In this document: piece after piece, positions 124 through 60,040 of the stretch
How the letters are laid out: each line of letters opens with the position of its first letter
Position numbering within the stretch: the first letter of the stretch is position 1
DNA from: Peptococcaceae bacterium UBA4068
Lineage (GTDB): Bacteria > Bacillota > Dehalobacteriia > UBA4068
Assembly: GCA_002382665.1 (NCBI GenBank)
Contig: DFZA01000009.1
Span: forward strand, 294,495 to 358,494
Length of the DNA stretch: 64,000 nucleotides
Direction of reading: 5' to 3'
Translations under genes and position numbers: made by a program
The notes under the pieces: model-generated
What the model was told of the DNA's origin: nothing
Databases searched by the model: none
Seen by the model: the letters and a program-made list of their open reading frames with translations, nothing else

Positions 124-1329
124 TTATTGCTCTTGTTTCATAGCGTTCTTAAATGCAGAGCGGCTGCGCCGGCCCCAAAACAAATAGAGCAGCAACGATA
201 TAGCAGCAGCACCGACCATTAGCGTAAACATATTGCTGTAACCATAAGTTTTAACCAATATGCCACTGATAATACCGCCCATGCCGATACCGATATCAAA
301 AGCGCAGAGTATAGTACTGCTAGCGGCGCCGCGCTGCTCCGGTTCCGCCACCCGCAGCGCCATTGTCTGCATGGTGGGAACCAATGTACCAAATCCGATA
401 CCGTAAAGCAATGCCGCGCAAATAAATAACGATAAGCTATGACCATAAGCGATCAACAGCAGAGAGGCAGCAATTGCCCCATTACAGACAAAAATCAGTA
501 CGCTTTCACCACGCCTGTCTGCAACACGTCCACTTATCAGCCGCGCAAACGCAACGCTAATCGCCATAGCTGCAAAAAATATACCGCCGCTGCCAACTTT
601 TGTCTCCACCGCATAAAGCGCAACAAATGCCTGTACCGCGCCGTATGTCAAAAGGGCCGCTAAAGTAATTGCCGCCGCAGGTAACGAGTCTTTGTTAAGC
701 AAAGTTCTGATATTTGGACGCAGACTGGCACTGTTTGCGGTAATTTCAATGTTGGGGAAACGCATCTGTAAAGATAAAACAAAAGCAACCACCGCCAGCG
801 AGCAAGAAGTATAAAATAAAGGGATAAAACCAAGATTATTCATTAAAGCAAAACCAATGGCCGGGGAAATCGCCATTGAGAGAGTATTGGTTAGCCCGAA
901 GTATGAGAGGCCTTCACCAAGCCGCGCACGGGGGATGATATCACAAGCGGCCGTATTGACCGAGGTTGTGGTGCAGGACCAGGCAACACCGTGAAGCAGT
1001 CGCAGCAATATCACTATCGCAATTAGTTTTACCCACGGGTAGACGGCAACAATTGCGATAATCGCTGCTGCGCCGACATATAACAGCAAACGCCGGCTCT
1101 TGTGATCAAGAAACCAACCGATGAACGGTCTGACAATCACCGAAGATACTGAAAAAATTCCCACTACAAACCCAACTACGGCTTCGTCGCCACCCAAACT
1201 TTTGACAAAGAAAGAAAACGTCGGTACCAACATATAAAAGCCAAAAAAAAGCAGCATATTCAGCATACAAACCATTATAAACGGTTTATTCCAAATCGAT
1301 TGCTTCTTTGTCTCAAATTTGTCGGACAT
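124..1329 (-). CDS. MFS family transporter
   Basis: 401 aa with about 12 predicted TM helices and MFS-like motifs (GRVADRRGE-type loop). Tandem paralog of the next gene. Confidence 0.75.
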   Translation of the reverse strand: MSDKFETKKQSIWNKPFIMVCMLNMLLFFGFYMLVPTFSFFVKSLGGDEAVVGFVVGIFSVSSVIVRPFIGWFLDHKSRRLLLYVGAAAIIAIVAVYPWVKLIAIVILLRLLHGVAWSCTTTSVNTAACDIIPRARLGEGLSYFGLTNTLSMAISPAIGFALMNNLGFIPLFYTSCSLAVVAFVLSLQMRFPNIEITANSASLRPNIRTLLNKDSLPAAAITLAALLTYGAVQAFVALYAVETKVGSGGIFFAAMAISVAFARLISGRVADRRGESVLIFVCNGAIAASLLLIAYGHSLSLFICAALLYGIGFGTLVPTMQTMALRVAEPEQRGAASSTILCAFDIGIGMGGIISGILVKTYGYSNMFTLMVGAAAISLLLYLFWGRRSRSAFKNAMKQEQ

Positions 1330-6249: not shown

Positions 6250-6257
6250 TAAAAAAA

Positions 6258-6278
6258 CAAGCCGCTAAAAGCGGCTTG
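6258..6278. terminator. Terminator hairpin CAAGCCGC-TAAAA-GCGGCTTG preceded by A7 (left copy of a duplicated bidirectional terminator)
   Basis: Perfect 8 bp stem directly after the cls stop. An identical 21-mer recurs at 6537-6557 followed by T7. Confidence 0.8.
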
Positions 6279-6536
6279 TGAAACTGTCAAAAAGTATCAG
6301 CGAGCTGAGAAACAAGCGAGACCAGGCGTCGTCGAAACCGGCGACCTAGCTGACTTTTACCTTGCGGAAAAACAGCAGCTAATGTCTTCGCATCGTGTAA
6401 AAGATACGCCGAGGAGACGGTGATGATCTGAACGACGACCTAGCTGGCTTTTAACTTGCGGTAAAACCGCAGCTAATGCACTAGCTGCGCTGCTTCGCTG
6501 CTTCGCGTCGTATCGCGAAGTGTATCGGCACGCTGA
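6279..6536 (+). repeat. Multi-copy intergenic element, long mosaic copy with an internal approximately 40 nt duplication
   Basis: 5' module AACTGTCAAAAAGTATCAGCGAGCTGAGAAACAAGCGAGACCAGGCG and 3' module TCGCGAAGTGTATCGGCACGCTGA. Internal duplicated block ACCTAGCTG(A/G)CTTTTA(C/A)CTTGCGG(A/T)AAAAC(A/C)GCAGCTAATG. Flanked by a 21 bp direct repeat. Confidence 0.8.
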
Positions 6537-6557
6537 CAAGCCGCTAAAAGCGGCTTG
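6537..6557. terminator. Second copy of terminator hairpin CAAGCCGCTAAAAGCGGCTTG followed by T7
   Basis: Identical 21-mer to 6258-6278. Overlaps the last codons (KKTSRF*) of the minus-strand gene 6544..7062. Confidence 0.8.
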
Positions 6558-7062
6558 TTTTTTTAGCTGCCTTACGACAGGCATACTGCAAACCAAACAC
6601 AGTTATCAGCAATGCCGCTGCAATACCCCAGATACCCAAACCAATACCGTTGGCATTCCCCTGTGCTGTTGTAATCATACCATAGCCGATATAGTAAAAC
6701 ATACCTACGCAGATTAGTTTGACCAAAGACAGTCCGGCAAATATAACCGCCAAGACAGGGACGGCATTCTCTTTGGTAATCGTCACGTTGAGATTAACCA
6801 TTTTGGGGAAAAAACGCACTAACGATATAACTATGTAAACTAAAATCATTATGCCGGCAAAAAATAAGATACTGTTTTTATTGCTCCAACTATCCGGCAT
6901 ACCGTTCGCGCCAAAATGGCTGGGAATCACATCAGGTAATGCGGCATATTTACTAAAAATTAATACTAAAGTAAGAATTAATCCAACAGCAGCCAATACT
7001 TCGCAGATAATTTCCATTTTGCTGCGAGGGATTTGCGGTAATTCGAAATCAATTTTGAGCAT
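6544..7062 (-). CDS. DUF1648-family membrane protein
   Basis: IPSHFGANGMPDSWSNK motif typical of DUF1648 (SdpI/YhfL-like), 4 TM helices. Confidence 0.6.
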   Translation of the reverse strand: MLKIDFELPQIPRSKMEIICEVLAAVGLILTLVLIFSKYAALPDVIPSHFGANGMPDSWSNKNSILFFAGIMILVYIVISLVRFFPKMVNLNVTITKENAVPVLAVIFAGLSLVKLICVGMFYYIGYGMITTAQGNANGIGLGIWGIAAALLITVFGLQYACRKAAKKTSRF

Positions 7063-7082: not shown

Positions 7083-7829
7083 TTATTCAATAGTCAGAAT
7101 GATCGGCTCTCCATCAGTTACTACAACAGTATGCTCAAATTGTGCAACTCTGTTATTGTGAGGTGTTTTAAGCGTCCAGCCGTCATTTTCCTCTAACACA
7201 TAATCGTCCCCTTCGGAAACAAACGGCTCTATCGCCAATACCATACCTGATTTGAGCAAGCGTTTATCCCGCTTTTCATGATAATTGTATATACTCTCAG
7301 GATCATCGTGAAGCGAATGACCAACGCCGTGTCCGCATAAATTGCGGATAGTTTTATAACCTTGCTTATGAGCTTCTTTTTCAACAATTAAACCCAGTTC
7401 ATTTAAGGGGAAACCATCACGGGCTGCCGCGATAGCTTTATCAAGAGCCGTCAGGCAACATGCAAATAATTTCTCGGTATTGTGCTTAACAGGCGGCACG
7501 GCGAAAGTTGACGCGGTATCGCTAAAGAAACCATCTTTAACCGCTGAGACATCAATATTTACTGTATCTCCGGCCTGAATAACCCTTTCGGATGGAATAC
7601 CATGAGCTACCACCTCATTTACGCTGATGCAGGTATGGCCGGGAAAATCGTAGCAGAAAATCGGCGCCGATTTTGCGCCGTAACTCTCCATTATCTGGCG
7701 TCCATATTCATCCAATTCTTTTGTAGTAATGCCAGGTTTTACTGCTTCGCCCATTTTACGCAGCGTAATTGCCGCGATCCGGCCAATTTCTCTCATTGCG
7801 TCCATTTCTGCAGCAGTAGTAATTATCAT
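7083..7829 (-). CDS. map: methionine aminopeptidase type I
   Basis: Pita-bread fold motifs (FCYDFPGH, HGVGHSLHDDP, LAIEPFVSEG), 248 aa. Confidence 0.9.
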   Translation of the reverse strand: MIITTAAEMDAMREIGRIAAITLRKMGEAVKPGITTKELDEYGRQIMESYGAKSAPIFCYDFPGHTCISVNEVVAHGIPSERVIQAGDTVNIDVSAVKDGFFSDTASTFAVPPVKHNTEKLFACCLTALDKAIAAARDGFPLNELGLIVEKEAHKQGYKTIRNLCGHGVGHSLHDDPESIYNYHEKRDKRLLKSGMVLAIEPFVSEGDDYVLEENDGWTLKTPHNNRVAQFEHTVVVTDGEPIILTIE

Positions 7830-7910: not shown

Positions 7911-8110
7911 GAGAACGGTCATTTACGACCGTTCGAGCCTGTAGACAAAGTATAAGGCTCCTAGACTGAGATAAAAGGCCAAGTCCTAGGCGGCAGCCAA
8001 GGCCAGGCCGGGAGCGTATACGGTAATACGTGACCAGCCTGGACTTTAGGCTGCCAACAACGGAATTGGCCTTTTATCTACGGTCTGGAACGGTCATTTA
8101 TGACCGTTCC
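7911..8110. repeat. Structured intergenic element: 154 nt long imperfect palindrome (7934-8087) bracketed by two direct copies of a 22 bp hairpin (GAACGGTCATTTA(C/T)GACCGTTC)
   Basis: Outer stem GATAAAAGGCC/GGCCTTTTATC; inner stems GGCAGCC/GGCTGCC, CCAGGC/GCCTGG and CGTAT/ATACG. The 22 bp bracketing hairpins are at 7911-7932 and 8088-8110. Confidence 0.65.
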
Positions 8111-8268
8111 TTATGCTTCGGCAGTCTACCTGACTTTTTTAAAGCTTCCCGTAATAAATACTCAATATGCCCATTAACACTGCGCAGCTCATCAGCGGCC
8201 CAACCTTCGAGAGCTTTATAAATATCGCCGTCTATACGCAGCGGAAAGCTCTTACGTTCGCTCATCGT

Positions 8269-9198
8269 TTAATACATGCTCCCAACATTGATTACGGGCT
8301 GTGACGAACGATCAGCGATGATGGCAACCATAATGTTATTAATCATGTTGAACTTGCGCTCATCGTCCAACTCAATAGAACTAATCTTTTGTAAATCATC
8401 AATAGCCATTGTCGCCATACCAACCGCACCGTCAACAATAATCCGCCTTGCCGCCAATATTGCCGAGGCTTGCTGCCGCTGAAGCATTGCACTGGCAATC
8501 TCGGTCGCATACGCCAGATGGGTCAACCGTGCTTCCAAAACCTCAACTCCCGCCTGTCCCAGGCGTGCAGAGGTTTCCTGCATTAATTGCGCCGATACTT
8601 CATCGGCATTGGCGCGCAGCGAAAATCCCTGCTCATCAAAATTATCATACGGATATTGGGCAGCAACATGACGCAACGATGTTTCGCTTTGGATCTCTAC
8701 AAATTCTTCATAGTTGTTAACGTCAAGTAAAGCTTTGGCGGCATCAACTACCCTGAATACAATAACAGCGGCTATTTCTATGGGATTACCGTTTATATCA
8801 TTTACTTTTAGCTTTTCACTGTTAAAGTTGCGTATCCGCAGCGATACTTTTTTAGATGTTGAAAAAGGTACCGTTAACCAGATACCGTTTTGGCGGATAC
8901 AACCGATATACCGTCCAAAAAAAATCACTACCGCAGCGGTATTAGGTTGAACAATCACCATTCCGGTCGCTAAAATTACAAATATAATTATACTAATAAC
9001 CGCAACAGTAATATAAAGGTTAGTATGCAGCATGACCCCGCTTCCAAGCAAATAAAAGCAATAGATACTTAACCCCAGAAAAATAATAATCAAAAGTAAT
9101 CCAATAAAGCCGTTGATTTTCCAAACAGGTTTTTCCGCGATTTGTTTATTTTCCTTGTCCATTAAAATCCTCCTAATTTGTTTCAAGAATAGCTTCAT
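8269..9198 (-). CDS. SPFH/band-7 domain membrane protein (stomatin/flotillin-like)
   Basis: N-terminal TM helices followed by an SPFH-like core with a C-terminal coiled-coil/Ala-rich region. Confidence 0.6.
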
Positions 9199-12178: not shown

Positions 12179-14004
12179 CCAAAGTATGCCTTAGCCACAT
12201 TGACAAATACTTTACCGGCGCTGGTACTGCCGTGGCCGCCATATTCGACAACGCAGGCAAAAGCAATTTCCGGATTATCATAAGGTGCAAAAGCAACAAA
12301 AACGCCATGGTTATCGTTCTCATCTGAAGACAAACCGGTCTGAGCAGTACCTGTTTTGGCGCCAAAACTGATGTCAAGCTGCCGGGCAAGACTGTAGGCA
12401 GTACCGCCCTTTTGCGTCACCATATACATACCTTTACGAACAGTTGCAAAAATTTGCGGATCAAGATCTATTTTTTGGGCCACTGTCGGTGTCGCTTCAT
12501 AAAGCAATTTACCAGAGCTGTCATAGGCCTCTTGAACCAGATAGGGTTTCATTCGCGCGCCGTTATTGGCCAGTGCTGCAATGTATGCTGCCAATTGTAT
12601 GGGCGTTGCTGAAGTATATCCTTGACCCATGCCGGTATAGTAACTGTCATAATCATGCCAATCTTTTTCCCAACCAGTAAATTTTGACGCTTTCCATTCA
12701 GCGGAAGGCATCAGTCCTGCTACCTCGCCTGGCAATTCAATACCAGTCTTACTGCCAAGTCCGAACACTGTACCGATTTCATGTAGTTTATCAATGCCAA
12801 CCCTATAGCCCATCTCTTGAAAGTAACTATTACAGGACACTGCCATTGCCTGATAGAAGTTTACATAACCATGCACGCCAGTACAAGCAGCGCGCCCATT
12901 TTTTCCCCAGTTCTTTGGATTACAATCCACCGTCTCCGAAGTACTTATCCCTGACGCCAACAGCGCCACAGCTGTTATTGGCTTAAATGTAGAACCGGTT
13001 GGATACGATGAAGCAATCGCACGATTAACGGTCGGCGTCAAATCTTCATCCCAATAGTATTTTGCTTTTTCAGTTGTTAAGCCATTAGCAAAATCATTGG
13101 AATCAATAAAAGGATAACTGGCCATAGCAATTACCGCGCCGGTTTTAACATTTATTACAACAGCAGCCGCTGCATCACATTTGGGTTGATCTTTCGCAAT
13201 CTGTTTCACGACATCTGACATTGAATCCTCCAATACTTTTTGAATACTGGAATCAATCGTTAACACCAATGTATCGCCCGCAACCGGCTCCGCGCTATAT
13301 ATAGTATCAACCTTACGGAAATTTGCCGTCACCTCTACCTCTTCAACGCCAGCTTCTCCACGTAATGAAACGGTTTTCCCATCAAAATCGGTTGTTTCCA
13401 TGGTTTTTTCCAATCCGGATTTGCCGATCCAGTCATTTACTAGATAACCGCTGTCGGAATTTTTCTTAAGTTCGCTTTCACTGATTTTACCAACTGTACC
13501 TAAAATATGTCCGGCCAAAGTACCTAAAGGATAATTACGCATTGGTTCTTCGGTAATTGTAACGCCAGGAAGCTCGTCACGCTTTTCCTCAATTGTATTG
13601 ATAATCTCCAAGCCCTCATCATAGCTATAACGTTTAAGTACTATCGGTTCATAGCTTGGATAATGGCTATCAATTGTTTTTTTAATAACATCCGCCGTTA
13701 ATTCCGGATCATTAATAATACCGGCAAGTTTTTTCGCCAAAGCTTTACTGTCATCAACATCACCGGCTGAAATAGAAATAGCAAACACCACTTCATTGTT
13801 GGCTAATAACACACCCTTAGAATCATAAATCAGTCCGCGGGGGGCAGCTACTGATAAAATCCTAACGCTATTTTGCTCAGAGACATCGGCCATAGCTTTG
13901 CCTTCAACAATCTGCAGATAAAATAGACGGCAAACTAAAATAATAAATAATATTATAATGAAAATAGTTAATATTTTTTTACGATGCTGAAACAACTTAT
14001 TCAT
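12148..14004 (-). CDS. mrdA: penicillin-binding protein 2 (elongation transpeptidase) with a poly-Gln C-terminus
   Basis: PBP dimerisation and transpeptidase domains (STFK, SCN, KTGT motifs). Position after mreBCD. Ends ...GAEQQQQQQQ*. Confidence 0.85.
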   Translation of the reverse strand: MNKLFQHRKKILTIFIIILFIILVCRLFYLQIVEGKAMADVSEQNSVRILSVAAPRGLIYDSKGVLLANNEVVFAISISAGDVDDSKALAKKLAGIINDPELTADVIKKTIDSHYPSYEPIVLKRYSYDEGLEIINTIEEKRDELPGVTITEEPMRNYPLGTLAGHILGTVGKISESELKKNSDSGYLVNDWIGKSGLEKTMETTDFDGKTVSLRGEAGVEEVEVTANFRKVDTIYSAEPVAGDTLVLTIDSSIQKVLEDSMSDVVKQIAKDQPKCDAAAAVVINVKTGAVIAMASYPFIDSNDFANGLTTEKAKYYWDEDLTPTVNRAIASSYPTGSTFKPITAVALLASGISTSETVDCNPKNWGKNGRAACTGVHGYVNFYQAMAVSCNSYFQEMGYRVGIDKLHEIGTVFGLGSKTGIELPGEVAGLMPSAEWKASKFTGWEKDWHDYDSYYTGMGQGYTSATPIQLAAYIAALANNGARMKPYLVQEAYDSSGKLLYEATPTVAQKIDLDPQIFATVRKGMYMVTQKGGTAYSLARQLDISFGAKTGTAQTGLSSDENDNHGVFVAFAPYDNPEIAFACVVEYGGHGSTSAGKVFVNVAKAYFGAEQQQQQQQ

Positions 14005-38888: not shown

Positions 38889-38972
38889 ATTACCAGAAAA
38901 GATTGTGTTTTACCACAAAAATTTTTGTTTTACCACAAAATATTTTTGTTTTACCAGAAAATGTTGGGTAAT
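38889..38972. promoter_or_regulatory. Four tandem approximately 21 bp direct repeats (TTACCAsAAAAnnTTTTTGTT-like) upstream of the AOR gene
   Basis: Units at 38891, 38911, 38931 and 38952, phased at two helical turns. The last unit overlaps the ecfT stop codon. Confidence 0.6.
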
Positions 38973-41910: not shown

Positions 41911-43095
41911 TTAAATTAGTCTTAAGACAGCAGCTTCGCCAACTGCTATATCCAGCTTTATACCGAAGTGCGCAAAAGCTTTTCCAATCATCGCCAGATA
42001 CGTAGGAACCATAATCGGGTTTGCTGCATTACCCATATGTTCAAATCCAATGATAATTTTCGCATGTTCGCCAATTCCGGTAATCATGAACAAACCATAT
42101 TTTTCATTTACGTAGTGACAGAATTCATCTGTATCAACGCCTGCGGGGCATTTAAAGGTTGTGCAGCTATTGGCAGCGATATCTTCCGTTGCCGCCCAAG
42201 TCTCCAAACCCATCGCCCGTAATCCGGCACGAAAAGCTTTGGCGCATTGCGCATGACGTGCGACAACATTATCTATTCCTTCCGCCAATATCTCATCGGC
42301 AGCAACACTGATGGCATAAACCAGTGAAACAGATGGGGTGCAAGGAAAAGTAGCCCTGTCGGCATCGATCCACATTTCTTTCCAATCCAACAGGCACATT
42401 TCGCTCCATCTGGGCGGATTTTTCTTCTTCATTTTATCCCAAGCTCTATCGCTAACAGCAACCATGCTTAATCCCGGAGGAGCTCCGATACATTTCTCAG
42501 AAGCGGCAACCACGACATCAGCTTTCCATTCATCAATATTTACATCAGTACTGGCAACGCCGGAAGCGCTATCAACAATAGTGATAACCCCTCTTTGATA
42601 TGCCAATTGACAAATTTCTTTTGCGGGATTTATTGTTCCCGAAGGAGTTTCGGATTGAACTATCGACAGAACTTTGATATCCGGATTTTCATTAAGCGCT
42701 TTTTCTACCGCTTCTACTGGTACAGCTTGATTGTATTCAACGGCTATTTCTATTGTCTTTCCGCCATAAGTATTAATCCAGCCTTCATATCCCTTACCAT
42801 AGTATCCGGACACAACATTTAGGCATTTGTCCCCTGGAGCAATCAGTCCATATGCAGCAGCTTCCAGAGCTAACAGAGCATCTCCTTGAACAATAACAAC
42901 ATCATTCTTAGTTTTCATGATTTGCTGATACTTTTTCACTGTATCCGCAAAATATTCAATAAAAGCAGAGCTGTGATAATGCAATAACGGCTGGCTTCCG
43001 GCCGCTAAAACATACGGGGATACTATACTCGGAGCAGCAGTTTTTTCAAACATTGGCCATCCATTACCTAGAACAGGCTGTCCAGTCTTATTCAT
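41911..43095 (-). CDS. class V (AGXT-family) PLP-dependent aminotransferase, paralog 1
   Basis: Fold-type I class V pattern (HSETPSGT, KC.GAPPG). Start MNKTGQP is preceded by AGGGAG. About 75 percent identical to 43511..44695. Confidence 0.75.
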   Translation of the reverse strand: MNKTGQPVLGNGWPMFEKTAAPSIVSPYVLAAGSQPLLHYHSSAFIEYFADTVKKYQQIMKTKNDVVIVQGDALLALEAAAYGLIAPGDKCLNVVSGYYGKGYEGWINTYGGKTIEIAVEYNQAVPVEAVEKALNENPDIKVLSIVQSETPSGTINPAKEICQLAYQRGVITIVDSASGVASTDVNIDEWKADVVVAASEKCIGAPPGLSMVAVSDRAWDKMKKKNPPRWSEMCLLDWKEMWIDADRATFPCTPSVSLVYAISVAADEILAEGIDNVVARHAQCAKAFRAGLRAMGLETWAATEDIAANSCTTFKCPAGVDTDEFCHYVNEKYGLFMITGIGEHAKIIIGFEHMGNAANPIMVPTYLAMIGKAFAHFGIKLDIAVGEAAVLRLI

Positions 43096-43446
43096 ATTTA
43101 CATCTCCCTTATTTATTGGCATTAAATCATTAACCGAGTAAACAAACTACAAAATATATATATGTTAATAAATTCCCCGACATAACATTACTCAAAAAAA
43201 AGAAAAGTTCTTCTCGCATATAAACCTTCAAACAAACACTCTCCCAACCCCTGCAGGGGTACTCGTATTTTTTCGCACGCGAATAGAGCGTGGTTGTATT
43301 TACGCGTCGGCTTTGCTCGACGCATATAATAAAAATCGAGAAGTCGTAATTTACGACTTCCCGATTAACATCATTTTTAGGTTGTTCTTAAAATTCAACT
43401 ATAATCAAGGACTATGCTAACAGCTCATAAAATAATTAACGAGAAT

Positions 43447-43510: not shown

Positions 43511-44695
43511 TTATAACAGCTCTAAAGCTGCGGCTATGCCAGCTGCGGTATCGTATTTCTTACCAAAGTCCTCAAATGTTTTCCCGATCATTCCCAATAC
43601 GGCAGGAACCATGATCGGGCGGGCAGTATAGCCCATATGACCTATTCTAAGTATCAGTTTGGCATGGTCGCGCAATCCAGCTGCAATAAATAAACCATAC
43701 TTTTCACGCAGATGATAACGGAATTTAAGAGTATCAATGCCTTCAGGACATTTAAAGGTCGTGCAGGCGTTGGCAGCAATATCATCAGTAGCAGCCCAAG
43801 TCTCCAGACCCATCGCACGCAGGCCGACACGATATGCTTTTGCGACTTGAGCATGACGCGCAATAACATTATCAAGGCCTTCAGCCAACATTTCATCGGC
43901 GGCAGCGCTGATACCATATACCAGTGATACGGAAGGAGTGCAAGGATAGCCAGCGCAGTCGGTATCAATCCACATTTCTTTCCAATCCAACAGGCACATT
44001 TCGCTCCATCTGGGCGGATTTTTCTTTTTCATTTTATCCCAAGCTCTATCGCTTACGGCTAACATGCTCATTCCGGGAGGTGCGCCAACACATTTCTGAG
44101 AACCGGTTACCAGAACATCGGTTTTCCAATCATCAACATTAACATCATAACCGCCAACTCCGGAAACGCTATCAACAATAGTGATAACTCCTCTTTCATG
44201 AGCTAATCGGCAGATATCTCTTGCGGGGTTTAGAGTGCCGGAAGGAGTTTCGGAATGCACCATTGAAAGAACCTTAACATCAGGATTTTCGTTCAGTGCC
44301 TTTTCTACGGCTTCAACAGGTACGGCCTCGTTATATCCAACGCCAACTTCGATTGTTTTACCACCGTAAGCATCAATCCAGCCTTCGTATCCTTTGCCAA
44401 AGTAACCTGAGACAACATTGATGCATTTGTCTCCAGGGGCAATCAAACCATATGCAGCAGCTTCTAAAGCAAGTACAGCATCACCCTGTACTAAAACAAT
44501 ATCATTTTTGGTTTTCATGATTTCTTGATACTTTTTGGTAGTATCCTCGAAATATTTCATGAAAGCAGGGTCATAGTGATGCAGTACCGGCTGACCGGTT
44601 GCCGCCAAAACATATGGCGAAACCTCGGTCGGGCCAGCGGCCATGGTGAACATCGGCCATCCCTTTGTCGGAACAGGCTGTCCAGTCTTACTCAT
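43511..44695 (-). CDS. class V (AGXT-family) PLP-dependent aminotransferase, paralog 2
   Basis: Same family as the paralog above. Start is preceded by AAGGAGAG. Confidence 0.75.
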   Translation of the reverse strand: MSKTGQPVPTKGWPMFTMAAGPTEVSPYVLAATGQPVLHHYDPAFMKYFEDTTKKYQEIMKTKNDIVLVQGDAVLALEAAAYGLIAPGDKCINVVSGYFGKGYEGWIDAYGGKTIEVGVGYNEAVPVEAVEKALNENPDVKVLSMVHSETPSGTLNPARDICRLAHERGVITIVDSVSGVGGYDVNVDDWKTDVLVTGSQKCVGAPPGMSMLAVSDRAWDKMKKKNPPRWSEMCLLDWKEMWIDTDCAGYPCTPSVSLVYGISAAADEMLAEGLDNVIARHAQVAKAYRVGLRAMGLETWAATDDIAANACTTFKCPEGIDTLKFRYHLREKYGLFIAAGLRDHAKLILRIGHMGYTARPIMVPAVLGMIGKTFEDFGKKYDTAAGIAAALELL

Positions 44696-45441: not shown

Positions 45442-46002
45442 CTAAATTGACTTCACCTCTCTACCTTTTTGTTTTTTACCAAATTGGGAAATTTGAGGAT
45501 AAGCTTTTTTAACAACAAAGACGAGCGGGATAGCAATAATCGCAGCAACTACCTGCTGAACGATCTGACTTGGAAAGTCAACAAGCGCGGGGCCAAAGCC
45601 ATACAATACTAACATTGCGAGAAAGTAACCACTGGCGTCAACAATACTACCCCATATCCAGCCTATAAAAATCCATTTAAGTGTGTAACCACCGGCGCGG
45701 GCAATCAAGCCGGCAACAAGCCCCTGAGAACCATGAATAATCATTGAAAAGATTATCCACTGAGGATAACCCGTAACCAAGTCACCAATACCTGTACCAG
45801 CAGCGGCTGCGATCATACTGATCCACGGTCCAAATGTAAATGAAACCCAATAAATACCAACATTAGACAAATTCATATAACCTTTTGTGGGTGCCAACGG
45901 TATTCTCAGAGCGATTGTCAAAAAACAGACCAGAGCAATAAGCACCGCAACCAAAATTACCATACGCAAATTCAATTTTCTTGCAAAATTTTCTTTTGCC
46001 AT
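45442..46002 (-). CDS. putative ECF transporter substrate-specific (S) component, paralog 1
   Basis: About 186 aa with 5-6 TM helices and an S-component-like N-terminus (VILVAVLIALVCFLTIALRIPL). Start MAKENF is preceded by GAAGGA. Confidence 0.5.
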   Translation of the reverse strand: MAKENFARKLNLRMVILVAVLIALVCFLTIALRIPLAPTKGYMNLSNVGIYWVSFTFGPWISMIAAAAGTGIGDLVTGYPQWIIFSMIIHGSQGLVAGLIARAGGYTLKWIFIGWIWGSIVDASGYFLAMLVLYGFGPALVDFPSQIVQQVVAAIIAIPLVFVVKKAYPQISQFGKKQKGREVKSI

Positions 46003-46215
46003 ATATCCTTCTTTCTCTATGCCGGCAAATAAAAATAAAAATCTATAGGTTATTTTTGCAAAAATCATGCTATGTTATACCTCAAATATTAAGAATCAAT
46101 AATGATTTTGTAATATGAATCTTATTTATAGCCCAAGTAGGTAGTTTGCCAATAAAATTAAACAAGAAGCTGTAACCATGTACCGCTCAAAGAAAAAATA
46201 GATATTGAAAGAAAA

Positions 46216-46398: not shown

Positions 46399-46950
46399 TT
46401 ACTGCTCTTCCCATTTCTGGGTTTTGCCGAGTTGAGAAATCGGAGGGTAAGCTTTTTTAACAGCATATACGAGCGGGATACCAATAATCACAGCAACAAT
46501 CTGTTGAATTACCTGTCCCGGGAAGTCAACAACTGCGGGGCCCCAACCATACATCCAAGCTGTTGCGCCGAAGTAGCCAAGACAGTCTACGATGCTGGCA
46601 ATAAACCAACCTAATAACATCCATTTAAGTCTATAACTACCTGCTCGGGCAATCAAGCCGGCAACTAGACCCTGGGCACCATGAATGATCATTGAGAAGA
46701 CCATCCACTGAGGATAACCCATAACAGCGTCAGCAATACCAGTACCAATACCACCTGCGATCATGCTGATCCACGGACCAAATGTAAATGAAGCCCAATA
46801 AATACCAACATTAGACAAATTCATATAACCTCTTGTGGGCGCCAGCGGTATTCTGACAACAATTGTCAAAACACAGATCAAAGCAATAAGTACCGCAATC
46901 AGAGTAACCGTACGTGAATTCAAAGTATTTGCTGATTTTTCTTTTACCAT
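46399..46950 (-). CDS. putative ECF transporter substrate-specific (S) component, paralog 2
   Basis: Paralogous to 45442..46002. Start MVKEKS is preceded by AAAGGAGG. The tracker ORF extends to 46989. Confidence 0.5.
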   Translation of the reverse strand: MVKEKSANTLNSRTVTLIAVLIALICVLTIVVRIPLAPTRGYMNLSNVGIYWASFTFGPWISMIAGGIGTGIADAVMGYPQWMVFSMIIHGAQGLVAGLIARAGSYRLKWMLLGWFIASIVDCLGYFGATAWMYGWGPAVVDFPGQVIQQIVAVIIGIPLVYAVKKAYPPISQLGKTQKWEEQ

Positions 46951-47336
46951 AAAAACAACCTCCTTTTTTTTCTTTTTTGATCTGGACAATTATAAAACGA
47001 GTTCTTCGGTCATAATTAAGGACTGGGAACAAACGCTCGGTACTAGCATTCATTCTCCGTTCCCTCATCAACATAATAATATTTGCGAGCGTTCAACTTT
47101 ATGCAAACGTTTCTGAATAACAACCCCTTAAAAAATAAAATATAATTAAAAGCAAACTATGATACGATTCAGTATTATAGTCTGCTTTATTTAAGGGATG
47201 TTATTAAATAGGCGATCATTATCAAAATGAGGAATTAAAGCTCCATCATGGCAAATCGGTGAAAGAAATGAAGGCATTTATTGTAATACATACATTACTA
47301 CAATTATGAGCCGGCCTTTGCATGAGTTAAAAAAAC

Positions 47337-51096: not shown

Positions 51097-51275
51097 AAGC
51101 CGCTAGTTGCGGCTTCAGACTGTCAAAAAAGTGTTCAGCGGGCCGAGAAACGAGCGAGACCAGGCGCGTTCGAAACCGGCGACGCAGGCGCATAAAAGAT
51201 GCGTCGAGGAGACGGGGACGGACACAACGACGTATCGCGAAGTTTATCGACACGCTGAAGCCACTAGTTGCGGCT
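51097..51275 (+). repeat. Multi-copy intergenic element (core 51116-51257) flanked by a 19 bp direct repeat of the terminator hairpin AAGCC(G/A)CTAGTTGCGGCTT
   Basis: 5' GACTGTCAAAAAAGTGTTCAGCGGGCCGAGAAACGAGCGAGACCAGGCG ... 3' ACGACGTATCGCGAAGTTTATCGACACGCTGA. The hairpin copy at 51097-51115 carries the A7 run (a U run on the minus strand). Confidence 0.85.
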
Positions 51276-51301
51276 TGGTGTTATCGGGTTTATTGGGTTA
51301 A

Positions 51302-57458: not shown

Positions 57459-57491
57459 AATTTAAAGTGGGATGTTTTATCACCTCACTAA

Positions 57492-57633
57492 GACTGTCAA
57501 AAAACGCACAGCGAGCCGAGAAACAAGCGAGACCAGGCGGCAGGGAGAGCCTGCTAGGGGACGCACTAAAACGTACGTGACCAACGCCGGGGCTTCCGAC
57601 AACGACGTATCGCGAAGTTTATCGACACGCTGA
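57492..57633 (+). repeat. Multi-copy intergenic element with a divergent core, downstream of argG
   Basis: 5' GACTGTCAAAAAACGCACAGCGAGCCGAGAAACAAGCGAGACCAGGCG, 3' CGACAACGACGTATCGCGAAGTTTATCGACACGCTGA. The core is replaced by unrelated GC-rich sequence. Confidence 0.8.
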
Positions 57634-57656
57634 GTGGGGCGTTTTTAACGCCCCAC
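57634..57656 (-). terminator. argG 3' hairpin GTGGGGCGTT-N3-AACGCCCCAC without a U tail, abutting the element
   Basis: Perfect 10 bp stem directly after the argG stop. A degenerate similar sequence (AAAGTGGGATGTTTTATCACCTCACT) lies on the other side of the element at 57465-57490. Confidence 0.5.
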
Positions 57657-57673
57657 TTTATTAATAGTTGCTA

Positions 57674-58870: not shown

Positions 58871-58941
58871 TACTGTAACCTCCTAATGATTTTGTTTATA
58901 TATCAAACTAAAAAACAACATCGAGAAACAAAATATATATT

Positions 58942-59082
58942 GAGACTGTCAAAAAGTGTTCAGCGTGCTGAGAAACGAGTGAGACCAGGCGCGGTCGAAA
59001 CCGGCGACGCAGGCGTATAAAGATACGTCGAGGAGACGGTGCTGACCGCAACGACGTATCGCGAAGTTTATCGACACGCTGA
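58942..59082 (+). repeat. Multi-copy intergenic element between argG and argF
   Basis: GAGACTGTCAAAAAGTGTTCAGCGTGCTGAGAAACGAGTGAGACCAGGCGCGGTCGAAACCGGCGACGCAGGCGTATAAAGATACGTCGAGGAGACGG...ACGACGTATCGCGAAGTTTATCGACACGCTGA. Flanked by ATATAT(T) on both sides. Ends 5 nt from the argF stop. Confidence 0.85.
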
Positions 59083-59086
59083 TATA

Positions 59087-60040
59087 TTATTTATCCTGCA
59101 TAATCAAGGCCATTACCGCCATTTGCGCAAACAGGCGGTTCTCCGCCTCATCGAACACTACCGACTGCGCGCCCTCTATTACTTCGTCGGTAATTTCCAA
59201 GCCGCGCTTGGCAGGCAGGCAGTGCAGCACAATTGCATCCTTCTTGGCGACGGACAACAACTTATCATTAAGCTGGTAAGATTGCAGCGCTTTGATCCTC
59301 TTTTCCGCTTCGGCTTCCTGCCCCATACTGGCCCAGACATCGGTATATAACACATCGGCGCCTTGGGCGGCCGCCAGCGGGTCGGCAATTACTTTAACGG
59401 AACCGCCGTTTGCTAATGCATCTTTAGTCGCCAGCTCAAAAATATGCTGATCCGGCTGATAACCTTCCGGAGAAGCAATCACAACCTCCATGCCAAGTTT
59501 GGCGCCGGCAAACATCAGTGAATGCGCCATGTTATTACCGTCGCCGAAATAGACCATTTTCAAGCCTTTGAGTTCGCCTTTGTGTTCACGAATCGTCTGC
59601 ACATCAGCTAAAGCCTGACAAGGATGCAACAAATCGGTGAGGCCGTTAATTACCGGGATATCGGCAAACTGTGCCAATTCCAAAACATCGTCATGACTAA
59701 AGGTCCGGATCATAATACCGTTTAGGAAACGCGATAGGGTACGCGCCGTGTCTTTGATCGGTTCACCGCGGCCAATCTGCAAATCGGCTGCGGAAAGGAA
59801 CAGACCGACGCCGCCCAGGTAATAAATGCCGGTCTCAAATGAAACACGGGTACGGGTTGAATTTTTTAGGAAAATCATTCCCAGCGTTTTGCCCTGCAAA
59901 TAATTAATCGCCTGACCGGCCTTTTTTTCTCGCTTTATATGATCGGCGACATCAAGCATATAGACGATGTCTTCATGGGAAAAGTCGTGCAGCGTGATAA
60001 AATCCTTGCCGGCAAATTTTTTGTCCAGTTTCATCATCAT
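59087..60040 (-). CDS. argF: ornithine carbamoyltransferase
   Basis: STRTR, HCLP and SMG motifs, 317 aa. Confidence 0.9.
   Translation of the reverse strand: MMMKLDKKFAGKDFITLHDFSHEDIVYMLDVADHIKREKKAGQAINYLQGKTLGMIFLKNSTRTRVSFETGIYYLGGVGLFLSAADLQIGRGEPIKDTARTLSRFLNGIMIRTFSHDDVLELAQFADIPVINGLTDLLHPCQALADVQTIREHKGELKGLKMVYFGDGNNMAHSLMFAGAKLGMEVVIASPEGYQPDQHIFELATKDALANGGSVKVIADPLAAAQGADVLYTDVWASMGQEAEAEKRIKALQSYQLNDKLLSVAKKDAIVLHCLPAKRGLEITDEVIEGAQSVVFDEAENRLFAQMAVMALIMQDK

Follow-up and report, generated by a model that had tools for sequence, protein, structure and literature searches.

A 153-nt MITE-like element flanked by a duplicated stem-loop at a gene end in a Peptococcaceae bacterium, and its relatives across bacterial phyla

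The non-coding segment at 7935-8087 of the window—the whole 64-kb stretch of Peptococcaceae bacterium UBA4068 DNA that was analysed—is probably a non-autonomous element of the MITE type that was mobilised by a DDE transposase acting in trans and whose insertion duplicated a whole stem-loop at the end of a ribbon-helix-helix (RHH) gene. The insertion as such, the duplication of exactly the hairpin, the membership in a dispersed multi-copy family and the occurrence of two modes of target duplication in this family are established. The family consists of mobile elements of ~150 nt, spans phyla and is apparently undescribed.

Insertion site and architecture of the element

The locus comprises the following features:

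7083-7829, minus strand: map, flanking gene
7913-7934, no strand assigned: left copy of the duplicated target hairpin, GAACGGTCATTTACGACCGTTC, composed of GAACGGTC-ATTTAC-GACCGTTC
7935-8087, plus strand: inserted non-coding element ("cargo"), 153 nt; matches model R1, which was built from outside the window, and is absent in locus L004 of a related species
7935-7950, plus strand: outer left terminal inverted repeat, GAGCCTGTAGACAAAG
7935-7960, plus strand: small 5' hairpin GAGCC...GGCTC, which contains the outer left repeat (from the fold and the family alignment)
7962-7978, plus strand: inner left repeat, a second copy in tandem, TAGACTGAGATAAAAGG, which pairs with the right end
7986-7992, plus strand: 5' side of the conserved internal loop, CTAGGCG, near-invariant columns in the family alignment
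8014-8031, plus strand: apical hairpin GCGTAT-ACGGTA-ATACGT, the apex of the family (GCGTAC...GTACGC), also present in the main element of the window
8055-8062, plus strand: 3' side of the conserved internal loop, CAACAACG, family consensus CAACRACG
8070-8087, plus strand: right terminal inverted repeat, CCTTTTATCTACGGTCTG
8088-8109, no strand assigned: right copy of the duplicated target hairpin, GAACGGTCATTTATGACCGTTC
8098-8265, minus strand: RHH gene of 55 aa (Pfam RHH_5, E=1.8e-4, a match below the curated Pfam cut-off)
8269-9198, minus strand: SPFH gene, directly upstream of the RHH gene

The element lies between the SPFH gene and map, where the initial annotation had placed it, with the RHH gene additionally in between. 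The bracketing by two direct copies of a 22-bp hairpin was likewise described there and is present: the copies are identical in 21 of 22 positions and differ by a single loop base, and, compared as inverted repeats, they show 3 mismatches, every one of which falls into the loop. A match comparable to this pair was reached in 0 of 100 shuffles, and the 64-kb window holds no additional copies. The right hairpin carries the last codons of the RHH gene (..K E R S *), with the stop codon (8098-8100) in the loop, and the end of the protein, ...KERS*, is encoded identically by either hairpin copy. On the minus strand, the left hairpin (7934-7913) continues into TCTTATATAT and scores terminator-like. 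With a G+C-rich stem-loop, a T-rich tract and a position at a gene end, the target hairpin is a predicted intrinsic terminator.

The inserted segment folds, as noted initially, into one long imperfect hairpin; its length is 153 nt rather than the 154 nt given before. The 231-nt region reaches a folding energy of −122.6 kcal/mol (z=−12.3) on the plus strand and −116.4 kcal/mol (z=−12.2) on the minus strand, and the 153 nt alone reach −86.2 kcal/mol on the plus versus −77.6 kcal/mol on the minus strand. The base of the long hairpin is formed by the inner left repeat and the right end, which are 94% paired. The outer left repeat GAGCCTGTAGACAAAG agrees with the reverse complement of the right end, CAGACCGTAGATAAAA, in 11 of 16 positions. 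At the level of the whole region, an inverted repeat joins 7913-7949 with 8073-8109 at 81% complementarity. The small 5' hairpin is the counterpart of a left extension of 26-27 nt seen throughout the family, for example, CAGAG-TATTGACAAAGTCCG-CTCTG in Pseudodesulfovibrio. Read from left to right, the order is GAGCCTGTAGACAAAG plus 11 nt, then TAGACTGAGATAAAAGG…CTAGGCG…GCGTAT…ATACGT…CAACAACG…TTTTATCTACGGTCTG, which is exactly the architecture of the family. The likeness of the apex, GCGTATACGGTAATACGT, to the CGTAT/ATACG hairpin of the main element had been pointed out before; the two correspond, and the motif is the conserved apex of the whole family.

Terminal inverted repeats of the kind expected of a MITE are thus present in the 153-nt element, and in the family they are ~20 nt long and co-vary. 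The element is small and has no coding frame of its own: the open reading frames at this position are a plus-strand frame of 63 aa (8030-8221), which overlaps only the 3' part of the element, and the RHH gene, whose end lies in the right hairpin. An integron attC site was rejected. Such a site is an imperfect palindrome that starts with RYYYAAC on its 5' side, closes with GTTRRRY on its 3' side and occurs in arrays after cassette genes; here, the order is reversed (GTT.. at the 5' and ..AAC at the 3' end), and the copies are dispersed singly and form no arrays. A hammerhead-like ribozyme, a fragment of a group II intron, 6S RNA and SRP RNA were rejected as well since neither sequence nor model supports them.

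Empty and occupied sites in related genomes

The RHH protein is found in identical form on three other contigs (L001-L003). L001 and L002 have the same sequence as the window. L003 comes from a diverged strain with the same two-hairpin arrangement: its cargo is 91.6% identical to that of the window, the adjacent promoter spacer 88% and the coding regions 94-96%, and at least one compensatory change is found in the stem of the cargo. In L003, both flanking hairpin loops have the sequence ATTTAT, from which it follows that the original duplication matched in 22 out of 22 positions.

A further comparison is with L004 (GCA_002419055.1), which belongs to a related species. Its SPFH gene is 86% identical, and the gene order is that of the window: valS, mreBCD, minCDE and SPFH-RHH-map-DUF1648-cls. 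At the orthologous spot, L004 has one hairpin, GGAACGGTCTTAATTGACCGTTCC, which encodes KERS*, with ATTTTAACC and the promoter spacer directly behind it; the cargo is missing. Because this site is empty and holds a single hairpin, the two-hairpin arrangement results from an insertion with duplication of the whole target hairpin. The initial annotation had read the bracket in this way, and the empty site, together with other family copies that are each flanked by their own locus-specific duplicated hairpins, bears it out. The target duplication is direct, with 21 of 22 positions in the window and 22 of 22 inferred for the ancestor. A comparison of the orthologous spacer in relatives, which had been proposed, reveals no conserved unit, given the single hairpin without insert in L004. 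The same locus provides a second empty site: at 12485-12510, a single bidirectional terminator stands where the window has a main element (6257-6558).

No other copy of the 153-nt segment was detected in the window by BLAST, and this subtype of cargo was seen at one locus only, namely, that of the window and L001-L003. A metagenome scan with a pattern specific for the cargo and the main element returned three matches, all of the main type; since the window's own contig was also not returned, the scan tells little about the copy number of the cargo in this genome.

Relation to the main element and its copies in the window

Six copies of the family are present in the window, at 1-115, 6280-6535, 7935-8087, 51116-51258, 57490-57632 and 58942-59081. 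Four main-type copies with their flanks are as follows:

6257-6558, plus strand: sister insertion, main-type copy at 6280-6535 (256 nt) with an identical 23-bp bidirectional terminator hairpin on either side (6257-6279 and 6536-6558); the site is empty in L004
51098-51276, plus strand: main-type copy with a duplicated 18-bp hairpin, one mismatch (51098-51115 and 51259-51276); 42.9 bits with model R1
57466-57657, plus strand: main-type copy with the most cargo-like centre (z about 8) and diverged copies of the flanking hairpin; 34.9 bits with model R1
58935-59088, plus strand: main-type copy with a 7-bp duplication, ATATATT, and no hairpin; 49.3 bits with model R1

The cargo had initially been regarded as unrelated to the main element and, hence, as a second, independent cargo with the same bracket. 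Judged by sequence comparison, it is instead a sister subfamily of the main element and stands nearer to the family consensus than the main element itself, which makes the two insertions members of two subfamilies of one kind of element. This relation escapes stricter searches: a profile HMM from four main copies did not reach the cargo, and stringent local alignment of the two is marginal. It emerges from end-free global alignment, in which the plus strand of the cargo scores z=8 with the copy at 57490, z=6 with that at 58942 and z=4 with that at 51117, versus z <3.5 for the minus strand of the cargo. The 3' ends of cargo and main element align over 33 nt without a gap at 20 identities. The covariance model R1, derived from 45 copies in other genomes and none from the window, has the cargo as its best match in the window, with 72.4 bits and E=5e-19 over model positions 1-151, that is, full-length—a score that is partly circular, as the pattern by which the family was fetched came from the window. 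The minus strand of the cargo reaches 19.8 bits only. Because of this circularity, an independent HMM was built from alignment columns 1-137 with the 33 patterned positions omitted; it ranks 7973-8033 first in the window at E=2.9e-5 and a main copy second.

Several features of the window copies stand on their own. The flank duplication of the copy at 58935-59088 consists of A and T only, so the main subfamily can also use short AT-palindromic sites. The copy at 6280-6535 is enlarged by two direct repeats of ~40 nt (6345-6384 and 6439-6478; CCTAGCTGRCTTTTAMCTTGCGG..CAGCTAATG), each of which is a hairpin, and a partial copy at the window start (1-35) carries the same ~40-nt module. All six copies lie on the plus strand; nearly all genes of the window lie on the minus strand, and the GC skew of the plus strand is negative throughout. 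Such placement on one strand is not what random DDE insertion would be expected to yield (two-sided probability about 0.03); it suggests that orientation is biased with respect to replication or transcription.

Elsewhere in the window, three tandem 21-nt units (AAAAATTTTTGTTTTACCACA) at 38897-38958 lie just upstream of an ECF/CbiQ transporter operon and may be a binding array for a regulator. Tandem paralogues occur as class-V aminotransferases (41911-43122 and 43511-44695; about 70% DNA identity over 300 nt) and as riboflavin-type ECF S-components (45442-46068 and 46399-46989; about 80% identity). Rfam detected no riboswitch in any part of the window.

The family across phyla

The family was fetched with a pattern of 20 shared columns (CAACNACGNANNNNGNNNTTTNTCNACNNNCTG) in a scan of one genome per species, for which ~4 chance matches are expected. 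The scan yielded 87 loci in many phyla, most of which contain a clearly homologous element of ~150 nt, and model R1 found additional copies that the pattern had missed. The hosts belong to Desulfobacterota, Myxococcota, Negativicutes, Clostridia, Nitrospirota and others; they include Pseudodesulfovibrio, Maridesulfovibrio, Desulfovibrio, Myxococcales, Bdellovibrio, and Nitrospira and Binatia MAGs and, within Bacillota, Pelosinus, other Selenomonadales, Acidaminococcales, a Peptococcaceae MAG, other Clostridia and Bacillota MAGs, and Lederbergia. Often there are several copies per genome, and often they sit at contig ends; several contigs of Pelosinus UMGS495 end inside the element. With six copies in the window and 87 loci elsewhere, the family is dispersed and multi-copy, as is typical of MITEs. 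Its members share the following parts:

Left end: outer left repeat CAGGCTGTTGAAAAA plus about 11 nt
Body: long hairpin of 124 nt, with a base formed by pairing of a tandem second left repeat and the right repeat (…CCTTTTTCAACAGCCTG)
Conserved internal loop: AGATGCTAGGCG / CAACGACGCAGAT
Variable stem, followed by the conserved apex GCGTAC…GTACGC
Pairs of terminal repeats, as alternatives: GAGCCTGTAGACAAAG/CAGACCGTAGATAAAA; GAGACTGTCAAAAAGT/CAGCGTGTCGATAAAC; CAGGCTGTTGAAAAA/TTTTTCAACAGCCTG

In the alignment of 45 copies, 96.5% of the cells are paired, and 17 of 29 pairs show changes on both sides; G-U pairs are common. None of 500 shuffles reaches any of five measures of structure conservation, and sliding the partners lowers the pairing to 29-44%. 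This covariation is no proof of an RNA since terminal repeats that are both bound by one protein must co-vary anyway. The plus strand folds better in 37 of the 45 copies, by −6.5 kcal/mol on average, with the copies being non-independent; this hints weakly at a role of the plus strand in single-stranded form. Some copies in Desulfobacterota (L013, L034, L045 and L085) carry an extra insert of 50-80 nt in the variable stem, indicating nested insertion or an expansion of the stem.

A conserved single-copy structured RNA—an sRNA or a 3' UTR, with both 22-nt hairpins as integral parts—would account for the very stable fold (z about −12), the compensatory changes seen in L003 relative to the window, the better plus-strand folding and a weak promoter-like site on that strand upstream of the element. 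However, the empty site of L004 with its one hairpin, the dispersal of the family in many copies with target duplications and its random orientation relative to genes contradict this reading, which the initial annotation had kept as an alternative. The cargo of L003 is also hardly more conserved than the neighbouring spacer, its identity being close to that of the latter. Rfam 15 gave no match for the window and 16 family loci at gathering and permissive thresholds, the permissive E-values yielding chance-level matches only. The structured RNA is accordingly extremely improbable. The motif strings of the family were not found in the literature searched, and publications on MITEs in Desulfovibrio, ISD1, reviews of IS1182 and the targeting of terminators contained nothing specific beyond PMC5678879.

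Two modes of target duplication

Exact flank duplications of 4 bp (CTAA, CTAG, TTAA, TTAG or ATAA) are found for at least nine copies, with L027, L028, L044, L047, L054, L073, L078, L084 and L089 as the loci concerned; L029 has a TCAA/TCAA duplication, which falls outside YTAR. The 4-bp target is often the stop codon of a gene, at a distance of 0. A reading of these short duplications as the 2-bp TA of IS630-type elements was ruled out since, in 9 of 9 clean cases, the left and right flanks agree in both outer bases of the 4-mer.

The second mode is that of the window. In about 13 of 47 complete copies, a whole local stem-loop is directly duplicated and starts immediately at the right end of the element. 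The duplications measure 18, 25, 26, 26, 26, 27, 27, 30, 41 bp and so on (range 18-41), and L071, L096 and L097 are further cases of whole-hairpin duplication. The length of the duplication tracks that of the hairpin; hence, structure and no fixed distance determines the stagger. Both modes are present in Pseudodesulfovibrio pelocollis SB368, in different subfamilies, and the 5' hairpin of the cargo, GAGCC-TGTAGACAAAGTATAA-GGCTC, resembles CAGAG-TATTGACAAAGTCCG-CTCTG of the subfamily of P. pelocollis that uses the hairpin mode. Relative to neighbouring gene ends, 13 copies are co-oriented, 13 are convergent and 16 have gene ends on both sides. Such an even distribution is expected of a DNA transposon and not of an orientation-dependent RNA element.

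Two observations concern the duplicated hairpins themselves. In L010 (3241-3428) and L096 (match 1066-1098, minus strand), the flanking hairpins have identical stems and loops that are reverse-complementary to each other, which a simple fill-in duplication does not predict. Among the duplicated hairpins in L010, L025, L033, L071, L091, L094 and L097, most have AG at their start and CT at their end, a hint that certain sequences are preferred at the stem feet; GAACGG..CCGTTC of the window deviates from this pattern.

Hairpins on both sides are also a property of elements that move as single strands. The left and right ends of IS200/IS605 elements carry hairpins, and the cargo might descend from such an element, or from one of the REPIN type, with a Y1 (HUH) transposase and with the flanking hairpins as its own subterminal ones. 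The direct-repeated hairpins at its ends resemble those at the left and right ends of IS200/IS605, a single strand carries all six copies of the window, and the plus-strand structure is favoured. However, neither IS200/IS605 elements nor REPINs are known to make a target duplication, and the relatives show clean 4-bp ones. A PATE or REPIN of this kind would bring identical hairpins of its own, but the flanking hairpins here vary by copy and match the local terminator, and one hairpin is kept at the empty site. The terminal inverted repeats of the element argue against this origin as well, and we consider it very unlikely.

Model of insertion

A MITE-type element mobilised in trans is the preferred reading. 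Its target would be the stem-loop overlapping the RHH stop codon, likely the terminator of the SPFH-RHH unit. This stem-loop probably took the form of an extruded cruciform. A DDE transposase provided in trans would join the 3' ends of the element to both strands, one at each of the opposite feet of the stem-loop, and repair of the two single-stranded gaps would leave the whole 22-bp stem-loop on both sides. As an alternative target, the same enzyme may make symmetric staggered cuts around a palindromic site of 4 bp. The insertion would be nearly harmless because each side regains a hairpin: the last codons and the stop codon are kept, and the distal copy stands before the T-rich tract. We infer the kind of enzyme (IS5- or IS1182-like DDE), the recognition of a cruciform and the mobilisation in trans.

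The search for an autonomous parent was negative at several levels. No insertion sequence with matching ends was found in the window, in the 98 fetched loci or, by BLAST, in the PLSDB plasmids. Inverted-repeat pairs spaced 0.6-3.5 kb apart contained no parent and turned out to be separate small copies on either side of ordinary genes. Recurrent long ORFs and the YREK motif yielded no transposase candidate among 697 ORFs of the fetched loci, and solo ends led to no parent either. Pfam revealed no transposase, including those of the DUF772 and DDE_Tnp_1_6 type, in 18 ORFs of the window, and a viral scan returned one chance match in a coding region.

The lack of a transposase in the fetched loci that were searched leaves some room for another enzyme or process that duplicates a palindromic target: a Cas1- or casposase-like integrase, a recombinase that acts on folded hairpins, or template switching during replication. 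The unfixed length of the duplication, which tracks the hairpin over 18-41 bp, and the flipped loops of L010 and L096 would fit these. On the other side, the same family makes fixed duplications of the 4-bp YTAR type elsewhere, which is a DDE signature, its terminal inverted repeats are conserved and co-vary, and a DDE model of stem-loop duplication has already been published. Taken together, such a process is unlikely.

Three features are unexplained by the simple DDE model: the flipped loops, the six plus-strand copies and the conservation of the internal loop and apex across phyla. The latter, together with the better folding of the plus strand, exceeds the requirements of a plain MITE. Conceivably, the transposase picks its targets by DNA shape—a palindromic 4-bp YTAR site, often a stop codon, or the feet of any extruded stem-loop—so that duplications would equal the hairpin in length and spare stop codons and terminators, and the internal loop, the apex and the plus-strand folding reflect a single-stranded DNA or RNA intermediate or a module that binds a cofactor. 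We put this forward as a tentative extension, more doubtful than probable; an intermediate or cofactor module of this sort occurs in no known MITE.

Target choice by DNA structure and not by sequence is poorly documented for bacterial transposons, and structure targeting by the IS1182 family has so far been proposed from a handful of insertions. The locus and its relatives form a natural series of two empty sites and of occupied ones in which the duplicated hairpin measures 18 to 41 bp. Combined with the sister subfamilies of P. pelocollis that use 4-bp sites, this series makes a model of cuts at the cruciform feet directly testable. The family is, moreover, common at gene ends in many uncultured lineages, often at the ends of draft contigs, can be mistaken for structured RNA and has no entry in Rfam.

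Comparison with known systems

The direct repeats of the IS1182 family range from 0 to 60 bp according to ISfinder. IS1272, which belongs to this family, targets stem-loops of 22-30 bp just downstream of genes (Wan et al., PMC5678879). In the model of these authors, duplicating the entire stem-loop corresponds to pathway b, whereas IS1272 itself replaces the loop (PMC5678879). IS1272L features a 25-bp tandem duplication of its left end (PMC5678879), to which the tandem left end of 26-27 nt in the present family is comparable. The likeness extends to the choice of palindromic stem-loops that lie just downstream of genes, vary in sequence and length and are often terminators; in the present family, such targets are evident from the two empty sites of L004 and the hairpin duplications. 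In contrast, IS1272 is 1.9 kb long, encodes its transposase and makes no duplication, whereas the element described here has 153 nt, is non-coding and duplicated the stem-loop. The link to the IS1182 family would be one of behaviour only, as no transposase of that family and no matching terminal repeat were found.

IS5 prefers YTAR and generates a 4-bp duplication. Members of the present family in Desulfobacterota and Myxococcota resemble the IS5 group by their exact 4-bp duplications of CTAA, CTAG, TTAG or TTAA, often at a stop codon, whereas the window copy duplicates a 22-bp hairpin and not 4 bp. The ends of IS5 are not known to resemble the family repeats CAGGCTGTTGAAAAA.

REPINs and REP sequences with RAYT share the long imperfect hairpins, the multi-copy distribution and the position at gene ends. 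They are tied to a RAYT gene and make no target duplication; here, duplications are present and no RAYT was seen. Correia/NEMIS, ERIC, RUP and BOX elements are similar in being ~100-250 bp long, non-coding, intergenic and multi-copy and in having terminal inverted repeats and a long hairpin. However, they are confined to lineages and make short duplications of fixed length, whereas the present family spans phyla, duplicates whole hairpins of variable length and, in contrast to them, features a conserved internal loop and apex. In kind, the element is ordinary, that is, MITE-like; it is unusual in being apparently undescribed, in the breadth of phyla that carry its family and in a duplication whose variable length is defined by structure.
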